DNA from: Escherichia coli
GTDB taxonomy: Bacteria > Pseudomonadota > Gammaproteobacteria > Enterobacterales > Enterobacteriaceae
Assembly: GCF_003991155.1 (NCBI RefSeq)
Contig: NZ_CP031293.1
Direction: 5' to 3' (one strand)
DNA: 64,000 nt
This document shows positions 54,145 to 63,146 of the stretch, piece after piece (positions within the stretch are counted from its first letter, which is position 1; each line of letters starts with the position of its first letter). The position numbers were made by a program, and so were the translations under genes. The notes beneath the pieces are model-generated. The model did not search any database. It had not been told where the DNA came from and saw only the letters and a list, made by a program, of their open reading frames with translations.

Positions 54145-56223
54145 TTAAATCAATGCCGATTTATCAATTCCCAGTCGCTTCATCCGTGACAGCAGGGTCG
54201 TGCGTTTCAGCCCCAGACGTTGCGCAGCGCCTTTAGGTCCGGCAACCACGCCGTTAGTTTCTTTCAGCACGCGAACAATCAACTGATATTCATCTTCGCC
54301 CTCCTGAGCGACAACCGTTGCGGCAGGCGGCGTTTCAGGTTCTGGTAAAGCAATATCTGGCAATGACAGCTGCAGCACGTTGCCGCGTGTTAGCAATACC
54401 GCGCGCTCAATGACGTTTTCCAGCTCACGCACGTTGCCCGGCCATTCCATGTTGCTCAGGATGCGCAGCGTCTCGGCAGGAATGCTGTCGATATTGCGCC
54501 CCAGACGACGGGCAATTTTGAAGGTAAAGGCTTTCGCCAGCAGCGGAATATCTTCCGGACGCTCGCGTAGTGGCGGCAGGTGGATCGGGAATACGTTCAG
54601 GCGGTAATAGAGATCGCTACGGAACTCTCGGTCGGCGACCATTTTTTTCAGATCGCGGTTAGTCGCGGCAATTAAACGTACGTCCGTCTGAATGATTTTG
54701 TTGCTGCCAAGACGTTCAAACTCCTGTTCCTGTAATACACGCAGCAACTTCGGCTGTAACTCCAGCGGCATATCGCCCACTTCATCGAGGAATAGTGAGC
54801 TTTTATCCGCCAGTTCAAAACGACCAATGCGCTGAGCGCTGGCACCGGTAAAAGCCCCACGCTCATGACCAAATAGATCGCTTTCCAGCAATCCGGCAGG
54901 CATCGCCGCGCAGTTCATTTTGACCATGCGGCGATTATTACGCCCACTGAGATTATGGATCGCGCGGGCAATCAGCTCTTTACCTGTACCAGTTTCACCG
55001 AGGATCAGCACGGTACTGTCACTTTGCGCCACCATTTCAACTTGTTTAAGTACGCTGTACATGGCTTCGCTGCGGCCAATAATCTCGCCAAATTCACTAT
55101 CAACATTGTTGAGCTGCTCGGTCAGGGCGAGGTTTTCATCAACCAGCCGTTCTTTCAGACGATGAATTTCCTGATAGGCGAGGGCGTTATCGACAGCGAT
55201 TGCCACACGTTCGGCAATCTGGCGCAGTAAGCTCAGATTGGTAGTGGTAAATACTTTCTCTTCGCATTGCGCCAGTTTCAGCACGCCCAGCATGGTGTCG
55301 CCAGACATCAGCGGTAACAGGCACAAGGTTTGAATCTGGTTGCCCCAGGTGTCGAACAACATGCGTTCATAGGGGGCTAAATCGTCCCGCTCGTGGAGAT
55401 TAATCAACAGCATCTCTTTACTTTTGAAGACGCGTTCGGTGAGGGTTCCGGCTTCATCGACTTCGCTCTGTTCGTGGGCGGGATGCTGTTTATCAAGATA
55501 GTGAGTGGAGTAGATGTTGAGTTTGTTTTTACGGTGGCTGCGTAAGACAATGCTGATATCGTCAATGTCGAAATAGTAATGGATTTCTTTGGCGACTTCG
55601 CTGACCAGTTCGTCCATATCCAGGCGGGAAAGCACCGCGTTGGTGATGGCGACCAGGATGCGGAAGTTATCGCGTTCCCGGCATAACAACTCATAGTCGA
55701 CATTGTTAACGACGCGGCTCTGGATTTGTTCGGTGACGACAGAAACGATCTGCGTAAATGTTTGCAGGCGATTGAACTCTTTTTCACTCCACGGGCGATC
55801 GTCATAACGAATAAATTCACAGCCACCAAAAATATGCCCTTCCGCCGCCAGTGGCATCAGGCAATAGTGACCAAATTTGGGGTATAGCCCACCTGCGGCC
55901 AGCTGCGGCCAGGTTTCACAAAATTCTTCGTAACTGCAATGCAGCGTATCAGGGCGCGACAAAATGCTGCGTACCGGACCGTGTGCCAGAACAGTTTCGT
56001 CTTCATATTTAATGGGGGTGTCTTTTTCACGCGACGCGTAATAAGACGCACGTTGAGTCTGCGCTTGCCACAACACAATAGCCGCGTTGTCGGCGAGCGC
56101 AGAACGCTTTACCAGTTGCGAAAGAGCCTCACACAGCGAGGCCAGATCGGGCTGCTGCAATAGTGTCCGAGTGATGTCGAACAACCCTTGTTGTCCGAGA
56201 TCACTCATCGGTGTATATGACAT
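54145..56223 (-). CDS. fhlA: formate hydrogenlyase transcriptional activator (sigma-54 dependent)
   Basis: 692 aa from MSYTPMSDLG; GAF domains, AAA+ sigma-54 activator (GETGTGKE, GAFTGA), C-terminal HTH. Confidence 0.95.
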   Translation of the reverse strand: MSYTPMSDLGQQGLFDITRTLLQQPDLASLCEALSQLVKRSALADNAAIVLWQAQTQRASYYASREKDTPIKYEDETVLAHGPVRSILSRPDTLHCSYEEFCETWPQLAAGGLYPKFGHYCLMPLAAEGHIFGGCEFIRYDDRPWSEKEFNRLQTFTQIVSVVTEQIQSRVVNNVDYELLCRERDNFRILVAITNAVLSRLDMDELVSEVAKEIHYYFDIDDISIVLRSHRKNKLNIYSTHYLDKQHPAHEQSEVDEAGTLTERVFKSKEMLLINLHERDDLAPYERMLFDTWGNQIQTLCLLPLMSGDTMLGVLKLAQCEEKVFTTTNLSLLRQIAERVAIAVDNALAYQEIHRLKERLVDENLALTEQLNNVDSEFGEIIGRSEAMYSVLKQVEMVAQSDSTVLILGETGTGKELIARAIHNLSGRNNRRMVKMNCAAMPAGLLESDLFGHERGAFTGASAQRIGRFELADKSSLFLDEVGDMPLELQPKLLRVLQEQEFERLGSNKIIQTDVRLIAATNRDLKKMVADREFRSDLYYRLNVFPIHLPPLRERPEDIPLLAKAFTFKIARRLGRNIDSIPAETLRILSNMEWPGNVRELENVIERAVLLTRGNVLQLSLPDIALPEPETPPAATVVAQEGEDEYQLIVRVLKETNGVVAGPKGAAQRLGLKRTTLLSRMKRLGIDKSALI

Positions 56224-58697: not shown

Positions 58698-59560
58698 CGC
58701 TGTGTCTCCAGCCAGTTCAGCCACTGGTCCATCCCTTCGCCGCTGGTGGCGGAAATAAGGATGATTTCAATTTCTGGATTGACTTCGCGGGCGCAGGCGA
58801 TGCACTTCTCAACGTCAAAGTTGAGATACGGCAGCAGGTCAACTTTGTTGAGCAGCATCAGTGAGGCGGCGGCAAACATATGTGGATATTTCAGCGGTTT
58901 GTCTTCACCTTCGGTAACGGAAAGCACCGCCACTTTGTGTTTTTCACCGAGATCGAAGCTCGCCGGACATACGAGGTTGCCAACGTTTTCGATAAACAGA
59001 ATACCGTTATCGTCCAGTGGCAGGCGCGGCGCGGCGTCGGCGATCATCTGTGCGTCAAGATGGCAACCTTTACCGGTATTCACCTGAATCGCTGGCGTGC
59101 CGGTAGCGCGAATGCGCGCGGCATCGTTCACGGTTTGCTGGTCGCCTTCAATCACCGCACACGGAACGCTATCTTTCAGGCGCATTAAGGTTTCCGTCAG
59201 CAGGGTGGTTTTACCGGAACCAGGGCTGGAAACCAGGTTGAGCACCAGTTGCTTGCGGGCAGCAAAGCGCGCGCGGTTGCGTTCAGCCAGACGGTTATTT
59301 TTGTCCAGCACGTCAATTTCGACTTCCAGCATCCGACGCTGGCTCATGCCCGGCGCGTGAGTGCCCGCTTCGCCATGACCGTAATGCAGGTCGCCTTCTT
59401 CAGTCTGGCTGGGGGTAAATTCAGGCGTTTTAATGCCGGTGATTTTCATCTTCGGGCGTGCCGCCGGGGCAAATGGCGCGCTACGAAACGCGGAATGAGG
59501 GTTATGTTCATCACCCTCGATATACAGGTTGCCTTCACCGCAACCGCATGTTGTACACAT
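58688..59560 (-). CDS. hypB: hydrogenase nickel incorporation GTPase HypB
   Basis: 290 aa; N-terminal [10 protein letters not shown] metal site, His-rich stretch, P-loop GSGKTT. Confidence 0.95.
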
Positions 59561-59563
59561 CGC

Positions 59564-59914
59564 TCACTCCTGGTCTATTTCTATCCGCCGAATCTGTAAA
59601 CCGTCGTCTGCCACAATCTGTAGCATATCACCATGACACTGTGGACAGCGGCGGACGCGCTGGGTCAGTAGCGTCACATACTGTTGGCATGTTTCACACC
59701 AGCATTCGGCCTCTTGTTCTTCGAGGTGCAGTTTACAACCTTCCGCCACGCTGCCGCGGCAAACCAGATCAAAACAAAAGGCAAGAGAGCTGGTTTCGAC
59801 ACAAGAAAATGCGCCAATTTTGAGCCAGACCCCAGTTACGCGTTTTGCGCCGTGTTTTGCGGCCTGCTGTTCGATCAATTCCAGTGCCCGTTGGCAGAGG
59901 GTTATTTCGTGCAT
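59564..59914 (-). CDS. hypA: hydrogenase nickel insertion protein HypA
   Basis: 116 aa from MHEITLCQ; CxxC...CxxC zinc site; RBS GGGAGG. Confidence 0.93.
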   Translation of the reverse strand: MHEITLCQRALELIEQQAAKHGAKRVTGVWLKIGAFSCVETSSLAFCFDLVCRGSVAEGCKLHLEEQEAECWCETCQQYVTLLTQRVRRCPQCHGDMLQIVADDGLQIRRIEIDQE

Positions 59915-59943
59915 ATCGCCTCCCATTAACTATCGCCAGCTAC

Positions 59944-59961
59944 AAGCAATAATTGTGCCAG
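59944..59961 (-). promoter_or_regulatory. sigma-54 promoter for hyp operon
   Basis: minus-strand reading CTGGCAC-AATTA-TTGCT matches the -24 GG / -12 GC consensus with correct spacing. Confidence 0.7.
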
Positions 59962-60072
59962 TGTTGATTATCCCTGCGGTGAATAATGTCGATGATGTCG
60001 AAATGACACGTCGACACGGCGACGAAATTCATCTTTAGCTTAAAAATCTCTTTAATAACAATAAATTAAAAG

Positions 60073-60089
60073 TTGGCACAGAAAATGCT
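60073..60089 (+). promoter_or_regulatory. sigma-54 promoter for hyc operon
   Basis: TTGGCAC-AGAAA-ATGCT, GG and GC elements 12 nt apart. Confidence 0.7.
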
Positions 60090-60125
60090 TAAAGCTGGCA
60101 TCTCTGTTAAACGGGTAACCTGACA

Positions 60126-60587
60126 ATGACTATTTGGGAAATAAGCGAGAAAGCCGATTACATCGCACAGCGGCATCGTCGCCTACAGGACCAGTGGCAC
60201 ATCTACTGCAATTCGCTGGTTCAGGGGATCACGTTATCGAAAGCGCGCCTGCATCACGCCATGAGTTGCGCGCCGGACAAAGAACTCTGTTTCGTCCTTT
60301 TTGAACATTTTCGTATTTATGTCACCCTGGCGGATGGCTTTAACAGCCACACCATCGAGTATTACGTCGAAACAAAAGATGGTGAAGACAAACAGCGGAT
60401 TGCGCAGGCGCAACTGAGCATTGACGGCATGATTGATGGCAAGGTCAACATCCGCGATCGCGAACAAGTTCTGGAACACTATCTCGAAAAAATCGCTGGC
60501 GTTTACGACAGCTTATATACCGCCATTGAAAACAATGTGCCGGTGAATTTAAGCCAACTGGTAAAGGGACAAAGCCCGGCAGCATGA
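60126..60587 (+). CDS. hycA: formate hydrogenlyase regulatory protein HycA
   Basis: 153 aa; first gene of hyc operon, divergent from hypA. Confidence 0.92.
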   Translation: MTIWEISEKADYIAQRHRRLQDQWHIYCNSLVQGITLSKARLHHAMSCAPDKELCFVLFEHFRIYVTLADGFNSHTIEYYVETKDGEDKQRIAQAQLSIDGMIDGKVNIRDREQVLEHYLEKIAGVYDSLYTAIENNVPVNLSQLVKGQSPAA

Positions 60588-60711
60588 GCTGAGGCTTTGC
60601 CCGTTTTGCAGGCGTTACGCCTGTTTGGGGATGGGCGTGTCGATGAGTGTCGAAAATGACATTTCATCGGCATGTTTTCGTCAAAAATGACAATCACCTG
60701 AGGAATGACTG

Positions 60712-61323: not shown

Positions 61324-63146
61324 GCGCAATTTCCCTGATCAATAGCGGCGTGGCGTGGTTTGTCGCCGCCGCTGTTCTGGCATTTCTCTTTTCTTTTCAA
61401 AAGGCGCTAAGCGGCTGGATAGCCGGAATTGGCGGCGCGGTGGGTAGTCTGTATACGGCAGCCGCGGGCTTCACTGTACTGACTGGCGCGGTTGGCGTGA
61501 GCGGTGCGCTGTCGCTGGTAAGCTACGATGTGCAAATCTCTCCGCTTAACGCGATTTGGCTGATTACGCTCGGTCTGTGCGGTCTGTTTGTCAGCCTCTA
61601 CAACATTGACTGGCATCGCCACGCGCAGGTGAAGTGCAACGGCTTGCAGATCAATATGTTGATGGCTGCCGCCGTCTGCGCCGTCATTGCCAGCAACCTC
61701 GGCATGTTCGTGGTAATGGCCGAAGTCATGGCCTTGTGTGCGGTGTTCCTCACCAGCAACAGCAAAGAGGGCAAACTGTGGTTTGCGCTGGGGCGTCTTG
61801 GCACTCTGCTGCTGGCGATTGCTTGCTGGCTGCTGTGGCAGCGTTACGGCACGCTGGATCTGCGCCTGCTGGATATGCGCATGCAACAGCTGCCGCTTGG
61901 TTCCGATATCTGGCTGCTCGGTGTGATTGGTTTTGGCCTGCTGGCCGGGATTATCCCGCTGCACGGCTGGGTGCCACAGGCTCATGCTAACGCCTCTGCG
62001 CCAGCTGCCGCGCTGTTTTCCACGGTGGTGATGAAAATTGGCCTGCTGGGTATTTTAACTCTGTCACTGCTGGGCGGTAACGCACCGCTGTGGTGGGGGA
62101 TCGCGCTGCTGGTGCTCGGTATGATCACCGCGTTCGTCGGTGGTCTGTATGCGCTGATGGAGCATAATATCCAACGCCTGCTGGCTTACCACACCCTGGA
62201 AAATATCGGCATTATCCTGCTGGGGCTGGGCGCTGGCGTAACGGGTATCGCGCTCGAACAACCGGCGCTGATTGCCCTTGGTCTGGTCGGTGGTCTGTAC
62301 CATCTGCTTAACCATAGCCTGTTCAAGAGCGTACTGTTCCTTGGTGCGGGGAGCGTCTGGTTCCGTACCGGTCATCGCGATATCGAAAAACTCGGTGGTA
62401 TTGGCAAGAAAATGCCGGTTATCTCCATCGCCATGTTAGTCGGGCTGATGGCAATGGCTGCGCTGCCGCCGCTGAACGGTTTTGCCGGGGAATGGGTTAT
62501 CTATCAATCCTTCTTCAAACTGAGCAATAGTGGCGCGTTTGTTGCCCGTCTTCTCGGGCCGCTGCTCGCCGTGGGGCTGGCAATTACCGGTGCGCTGGCG
62601 GTGATGTGTATGGCGAAAGTCTATGGCGTTACTTTCCTCGGCGCGCCGCGTACCAAAGAAGCCGAAAACGCCACCTGTGCGCCGCTCCTGATGAGCGTAA
62701 GCGTAGTGGCACTGGCGATTTGCTGCGTAATTGGCGGTGTTGCTGCGCCGTGGCTGCTGCCGATGCTCTCTGCTGCTGTACCTCTGCCGCTGGAGCCTGC
62801 TAACACCACCGTTTCTCAACCAATGATCACGTTGCTGCTGATTGCCTGCCCGCTGCTGCCATTCATCATTATGGCGATTTGCAAAGGCGATCGTTTGCCG
62901 TCGCGTTTCCGCGGCGCGGCCTGGGTGTGCGGCTACGACCATGAAAAATCAATGGTGATTACTGCTCACGGTTTTGCCATGCCGGTGAAACAGGCGTTTG
63001 CGCCGGTGCTGAAACTGCGCAAATGGCTGAATCCGGTGTCGCTGGTACCGGGCTGGCAGTGCGAGGGGAGTGCGTTGCTGTTCCGCCGGATGGCGCTGGT
63101 TGAACTGGCGGTGCTGGTGGTGATTATTGTTTCACGAGGAGCCTGA
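61320..63146 (+). CDS. hycC: formate hydrogenlyase membrane subunit HycC (NuoL/MnhA-like)
   Basis: 608 aa polytopic membrane protein. Confidence 0.93.
   Translation: MSAISLINSGVAWFVAAAVLAFLFSFQKALSGWIAGIGGAVGSLYTAAAGFTVLTGAVGVSGALSLVSYDVQISPLNAIWLITLGLCGLFVSLYNIDWHRHAQVKCNGLQINMLMAAAVCAVIASNLGMFVVMAEVMALCAVFLTSNSKEGKLWFALGRLGTLLLAIACWLLWQRYGTLDLRLLDMRMQQLPLGSDIWLLGVIGFGLLAGIIPLHGWVPQAHANASAPAAALFSTVVMKIGLLGILTLSLLGGNAPLWWGIALLVLGMITAFVGGLYALMEHNIQRLLAYHTLENIGIILLGLGAGVTGIALEQPALIALGLVGGLYHLLNHSLFKSVLFLGAGSVWFRTGHRDIEKLGGIGKKMPVISIAMLVGLMAMAALPPLNGFAGEWVIYQSFFKLSNSGAFVARLLGPLLAVGLAITGALAVMCMAKVYGVTFLGAPRTKEAENATCAPLLMSVSVVALAICCVIGGVAAPWLLPMLSAAVPLPLEPANTTVSQPMITLLLIACPLLPFIIMAICKGDRLPSRFRGAAWVCGYDHEKSMVITAHGFAMPVKQAFAPVLKLRKWLNPVSLVPGWQCEGSALLFRRMALVELAVLVVIIVSRGA

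Follow-up and report, generated by a model that had tools for sequence, protein, structure and literature searches.

Divergent sigma-54 promoters and putative FhlA enhancers in the hypA-hycA spacer of Escherichia coli

The interval 59915-60125 of the window, the 64-kb stretch of Escherichia coli DNA that we analysed, is exactly the 211-bp spacer between the start of hypA (minus strand) and the start of hycA (plus strand). It raises two questions: do the sigma-54-like motifs on its two strands mark genuine promoters, and which FhlA enhancer would serve which of them? Our analysis indicates that the region is very probably the canonical regulatory spacer of the E. coli formate regulon, in which divergent sigma-54 promoters are combined with FhlA enhancers. 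A divergent hyc/hyp control region of this kind is already known, with descriptions of its architecture going back to 1990-2000.

Gene content and conservation of the spacer

Many complete E. coli genomes match the region 59500-60700 at 100% identity and have hypB, hypA and hycA annotated there. The identities of hypA and hycA are backed by the RefSeq annotation of these genomes and of E. coli K-12, whose gene order is the same as that of the window. In the annotation of one genome with 100% identity, the neighbourhood consists of mutS, ygbA, fhlA and hypEDCBA (minus strand), followed by hycABCDEFGHI (plus strand). The gene for the cognate activator, which an FhlA upstream activating sequence (UAS) requires, is present within the window itself. 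The coordinates of all features are collected in Table 1.

Table 1. Genes, promoters and putative regulatory sites at the hyp-hyc locus, in window coordinates.
Feature	Position	Strand	Sequence and basis
fhlA, activator gene, last of the hyp transcription unit, downstream of hypE	54145..56223	-	Position taken over from an annotated genome of 100% identity
hypA coding sequence	59564..59914	-	ORF and RefSeq annotation; ATG 59914-59912, protein begins MHEITL
hypA Shine-Dalgarno sequence	~59920-59924	-	GGAGG; column identity averages 0.90
hyp sigma-54 promoter	59945..59961	-	CTGGCACAATTATTGCT = CTGGCAC-AATTA-TTGCT; GG 59959-59958, GC 59947-59946
Putative FhlA UAS1	59986..60029	.	TGTCGA/TGACA repeats ATGTCGATGATGTCGAAATGACACGTCGACA and distal GCGACGAAAT half-site; matrix, footprint
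IHF-like site	60056..60068	+	TAACAATAAATTA, one mismatch to WATCAANNNNTTR; inside A/T-rich 60030-60072, between UAS1 and the hyc promoter
hyc sigma-54 promoter	60073..60089	+	TTGGCACAGAAAATGCT = TTGGCAC-AGAAA-ATGCT; GG 60075-60076, GC 60087-60088
hycA, hyc operon gene 1, encodes FhlA antagonist	60126..60587	+	ORF and annotation
Putative FhlA-type UAS2, hycA-hycB spacer	60637..60692	.	GTGTCGATGAGTGTCGAAAATGACA ... TTTCGTCAAAAATGACA; outside the originally predicted interval

For comparison across the Enterobacteriaceae, a scan with HycA yielded 80 loci from Escherichia, Salmonella, Citrobacter, Enterobacter, Klebsiella, Raoultella, Kluyvera, Kosakonia, Lelliottia and other genera, giving a set of 81 sequences including the window. 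In all 80 related loci hypA is divergent from hycA, the MHEITL start of hypA is kept and the spacer measures 188-223 bp.

The closest known system is the hycA/hypA promoter pair of E. coli K-12 (EcoCyc hycAp and hypAp; Lutz et al. 1990), which represents the same locus with the same gene order and the same motifs, equally placed with respect to the start codons. Between K-12 MG1655 and the window, the spacer differs by two SNPs only. At 59934, the predicted hyp transcription start, the window has C and K-12 has T (A to G on the transcribed strand). The second SNP (60081; G in the window, A in K-12) is found in the non-conserved N5 spacer of the hyc -24/-12 element, and its G variant is also seen in E. 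albertii and other Escherichia. Both SNPs leave the GG/GC cores and the UAS repeats untouched.

The orthologous, likewise divergent hycA/hypA promoters of Salmonella Typhimurium, TGGCATGGAAAATGCTTA and TGGCATAAATATTGCTTT (PMC3844500), have TGGCAT where the window has TGGCAC, and their spacer is 3 bp shorter. S. enterica carries the same UAS1 core as the window.

Two divergent sigma-54 promoters

The original prediction had placed a hyc promoter, TTGGCAC-N5-ATGCT, at 60073-60089 on the plus strand, which is exactly where this motif lies. For hyp it had named CTGGCAC-N5-TTGCT on the minus strand; the motif is present, and only its claimed boundary at 59944 has to be corrected by one base, the 17-mer spanning 59945-59961. 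Relative to the consensus TGGCACN5TTGCW, the hyp motif has no mismatch and the hyc motif has one. In both motifs GG and GC lie one helical turn apart, as expected of sigma-54 promoters. Transcription of hyp is predicted to start at ~59934, 20 nt ahead of the hypA ATG, and that of hyc at ~60100, 26 nt ahead of the hycA ATG.

How unusual are such motifs? When at most one mismatch to the consensus is allowed, four sites are found in the window versus 3.6 expected. Counting consensus matches proves nothing for sigma-54 on its own, and matrix ranking and conservation were used instead. The RpoN weight matrix, which represents 186 promoters and was applied as printed in PMC7658346, scores the hyp motif at 18.8 and the hyc motif at 15.5, the top two values among ~128,000 positions on both strands of the 64 kb. 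First-order Markov simulations produce 0.04 matches per 64 kb with a score of at least 18.8, and 0.86 matches with a score of at least 15.4. The hyp motif is exceptional on score alone. The score of the hyc motif alone is not beyond chance, a match of its grade being expected about once per 64 kb; it is convincing because of its placement, on the correct strand, with GC 36 nt from the ATG and within a 211-bp divergent spacer, and because of its conservation in 81 of 81 sequences.

In each of these 81 spacers the hyc motif is found at -50 to -53 from the ATG with a score of at least 13.4, and the hyp motif with a score of at least 15.1. Measured in 77 spacers, the distance from GC to ATG is almost always 36-39 nt for hycA and 30-36 nt for hypA. 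Moreover, the mean identity to the window over the 81 genomes reaches 0.87-0.90 in the four promoter half-elements.

Published data on sigma-54 occupancy point to the same two sites. Bonocora et al. (PMC4591121) report K-12 sigma-54 ChIP-seq peaks for hycA (OS27, FAT 91) and hypA (OS28, FAT 201), both marked 'C', that is experimentally confirmed in EcoCyc, with predicted start-to-gene distances of 26 nt for hycA and 20 nt for hypA. The hyp motif of the window is identical to the motif of OS28, and the hyc motif equals that of OS27 (TTGGCACAAAAAATGCT) except for the spacer SNP at 60081. An RpoN-holoenzyme gSELEX peak has also been mapped to the hycA/hypA spacer (Shimada et al., PMC8743547). In Salmonella, the orthologous promoter motifs are bound by sigma-54 in ChIP-chip and sigma-54-dependent in arrays, and the hyc, hyp, hydN and fdhF operons depend on sigma-54, FhlA having been assigned as their activator (PMC3844500). 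The suggestion that the known FhlA and sigma-54 dependence of these operons can serve as a check on the annotation is borne out, the ChIP-seq, EcoCyc, gSELEX and Salmonella data being in agreement and RefSeq confirming the genes. The positions of the motifs, their rank, their conservation and their agreement with the published K-12 occupancy are direct observations of this analysis.

Could the -24/-12 matches nevertheless be fortuitous, and the operons be driven by other promoters, for example by sigma-70? Such a reading would be compatible with a consensus count that does not exceed expectation and with the frequency of hyc-grade matches. It is almost certainly wrong, however. Both motifs lie under strong K-12 sigma-54 ChIP-seq peaks, their distance from the start codons is fixed in 81/81 genomes, and the sole sigma-70-like match in the region is weak (9/12), with one such match found versus 1.8 expected. 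This match, at 59926-59953, was rejected as a promoter, being weak and within chance expectation. A search of 59564-59914 for an FNR site that would belong to the reported internal hypA promoter gave no match with up to two mismatches.

A third sigma-54-like motif, TGGCACATCTACTGCA, is found at 60195-60210 on the plus strand inside hycA. With a score of 15.0 it is the third-best RpoN matrix match of the window and is oriented like the operon; since E. coli has many intragenic sigma-54 sites (PMC4591121), it might be an internal promoter for hycB and the genes downstream. We consider this very improbable. The motif is missing from the 135 ChIP-seq sites of PMC4591121, which contain no intragenic b2725 entry; it spells the conserved peptide W-H/R-x-Y-C-N; and in many genera a synonymous change of TGC to TGT destroys the GC of the -12 element and lowers the scores to 4-9. 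The motif is probably a coding by-product, because its conservation is explained by the protein. In hycC, a further match on the plus strand (GTGGCGCGTTTGTTGCC, 62530-62546) scores 11.1 with the RpoN matrix and is the counterpart of IS31, a weak intragenic ChIP-seq site for sigma-54 (FAT 1; PMC4591121).

The two promoter regions are also linked by a 26-nt inverted repeat with 77% complementarity (59935-59960 and 60074-60099), in which the similarity continues beyond the -12 elements into GCTGGC. As a functional element of its own this repeat was rejected, its extension past the cores being confined to Escherichia.

FhlA-type repeats and an IHF-like site between the promoters

The original prediction had further proposed that repeated GTCGA/CGACA motifs between the promoters are plausible FhlA upstream activating sequences. 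Four lines of evidence bear this out: a repeat string, an FhlA matrix match, half-sites of a published consensus and a phylogenetic footprint. The repeat string, TGTCGATGATGTCGAAATGACACGTCGACACGGCGACGAAA, occupies 59987-60027, and its 41 nt contain four GTCGA/TCGAC motifs versus 0.09 expected. The FhlA matrix, a 14-nt pattern of the form TGWC-N6-GWCA derived from 13 characterised sites (PMC7658346), gives 16.1 at 59987-60000, the second-best match of the window, a value that is partly circular in that the E. coli source sites very probably include UAS1 and UAS2 themselves. A 16-nt FhlA consensus, CATTTCGTACGAAATG (Leonhartsberger et al. 2000), is given in PMC4987338 for hyc, hyp, hydN and fdhF, and UAS1 contains two direct CGAAAT half-sites of it, at 59999 and 60023.

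The FhlA matrix transfers poorly to other genera, where the median best score is 10-11, and footprints in the alignment were used instead. Across the 81 genomes, the UAS1 core (59986-60013) has a mean identity to the window of 0.83 versus 0.36-0.44 in the in-between stretches, and the alignment defines a conserved core of ATG(T/A)CGAyGATG(A/T)CGAAATGACAyGTCG. UAS1 is a strong phylogenetic footprint, which supports it as a plausible FhlA UAS. Relative to the predicted transcription starts, its centre is at about -99 for hyc and about -67 for hyp. A terminator-like match at 60024-60009 was rejected as such; it consists of the palindromic UAS repeats and is upstream of both starts.

UAS1 also resembles the repeats upstream of other FhlA-dependent operons. 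In fdhF, hydN-hypF and hyf, as in hyc, a sigma-54 -24/-12 element is combined with TGTCGATGA- or CGTCAAAAxTGAC-type repeats ~100 bp upstream; in K-12 these repeats are TTTCGTCACGTCAAAACTGACGACA for fdhF and GTGTCGATGACATCG for hydN, each ~100 bp upstream of the sigma-54 promoter. Unlike the divergent hyc/hyp pair, fdhF, hydN-hypF and hyf have single promoters, and they are without a second enhancer inside a neighbouring operon.

The A/T-rich DNA between UAS1 and the hyc promoter contains a candidate binding site for IHF. Matches to the IHF pattern number 59 in the window versus 53 expected, so that a match is not significant alone. In most genera, a 13-mer that fits the relaxed IHF pattern begins exactly 19 nt upstream of the hyc GG, and in many of them a perfect AATCAAnnnnTTA is found at this position. 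Transcription of hyc in vitro reportedly depends on IHF (Hopper et al. 1994).

K-12 hydN has a block, TAAATAACAGTAAATTAAAAACTGGCA, that comprises an IHF-like site and a -24 element and is nearly identical to the hyc block TTAATAACAATAAATTAAAAGTTGGCA (60052-60079). This near-identity suggests that IHF-like site and -24 element form a module common to two FhlA-dependent promoters.

A second FhlA-type enhancer and the pairing of enhancers with promoters

The best FhlA matrix match of the whole window is found outside the divergent spacer, between hycA and hycB. There, TGTCGAAAATGACA at 60648-60661 scores 17.3 of a possible 17.4, and a further match, CGTCAAAAATGACA at 60679-60692, scores 12.0. The layout of this putative UAS2, TGTCGATGA(G)TGTCGAAA(A)TGACA, is the same as that of UAS1, which it resembles in sequence. 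UAS2 is nearly invariant in the 81 genomes and better conserved than UAS1, and the remainder of the hycA-hycB spacer varies between 67 and 146 nt. It ends ~20 nt ahead of the hycB start codon, within the hyc transcription unit, and lies ~700-760 bp upstream of the predicted hyp start. Between UAS2 and hycB no sigma-54 motif was found.

Just past the hycA stop codon, the same spacer contains a perfect hairpin, CAGGCG-TTA-CGCCTG, followed by TTTGGGG (60609-60623), which may serve as a weak attenuator or affect RNA stability. Hairpin-forming inserts differ among Escherichia, Salmonella and Citrobacter (spacer of 124-146 nt), and the other genera are without them (67-97 nt).

Which enhancer would serve which promoter? 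The spacing between the elements of the divergent spacer may bear on this question. Across genera, the distance from GG to GG falls into classes of 94, 104-105 or 114-118 bp without intermediates, that from UAS1 to the hyc GG into 51-52, 62-65 or 73-74, and that from UAS1 to the hyp GG into 41-43, 52-54 or 65, a quantisation in steps of ~10-11 bp that rests on a handful of independent indel events. These classes suggest that helical phasing has been kept among the two promoters and UAS1. Since the spacing of UAS1 and of the IHF-like site to both promoters is nearly integral in helical turns, UAS1 may not be exclusive to hyc. It is conceivable, if rather unlikely, that the promoters, UAS1 and the IHF-like site constitute one nucleoprotein unit locked to a face of the helix, in which UAS1 would also aid hyp or couple both promoters. 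If true, such a phase-locked unit would depart from the textbook assignment of UAS1 to hyc alone.

Another arrangement is a single shared enhancer, with UAS1 activating both Phyc and Phyp and UAS2 being auxiliary or having another purpose. UAS1 lies upstream of both promoters, and the distance steps of ~10-11 bp would keep its helical face towards each of them. We nevertheless regard this arrangement as distinctly improbable. Looping would have to span just ~67 bp between the centre of UAS1 and the predicted hyp start, a short distance that contains no bend site, and the quantised spacing goes back to few independent indels. Moreover, it is UAS2 that is the best FhlA-type sequence of the window and almost invariant in 81 genomes, and there is no sigma-54 promoter downstream of UAS2 that could use it. 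Finally, Schlensog et al. 1994 reportedly assigned the hycA-hycB site to the activation of hyp from ~0.7 kb off.

The original prediction of a plausible enhancer between the promoters is supported, and its implied sole service to both promoters has to be qualified by the second FhlA-type enhancer in the hycA-hycB spacer. Our text search of the literature, which took in papers other than the primary footprint papers, returned no statement of FhlA footprint positions or of the enhancer serving hyp.

In the reading that we prefer, with separate enhancers for the two operons, sigma-54 RNA polymerase would be held in closed complexes on the two divergent -24/-12 promoters, Phyp, directing transcription of hypABCDE-fhlA, and Phyc, directing transcription of hycABCDEFGHI. 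The enhancer-binding protein FhlA, once activated by formate, would bind to the repeated TGTCGA/CGAAATG-type sites. UAS1, ~100 bp upstream of the hyc start, would act as the enhancer for Phyc, and an IHF-induced bend at the A/T-rich DNA between them would allow FhlA to contact the polymerase by DNA looping, upon which ATP hydrolysis by FhlA would open the promoter, the standard mode of action of a bacterial enhancer. UAS2, ~0.7 kb upstream of Phyp, would be the enhancer for hyp in line with its reported assignment. Finally, HycA antagonises FhlA, and expression of fhlA from Phyp provides a positive feedback. No result of the analysis speaks against this scheme. The binding of FhlA and IHF, the formate dependence and the choice of enhancer for each promoter enter this scheme from the literature or by inference.

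The main use of the finding is that of a positive control, which identifies the window as the E. coli hyp-hyc locus and illustrates that a reading of raw sequence can recover genuine sigma-54 promoters together with an enhancer. The region governs the formate-dependent synthesis of hydrogenase 3 and of its maturation machinery, and is of relevance for fermentative pH homeostasis and for the engineering of hydrogen production.
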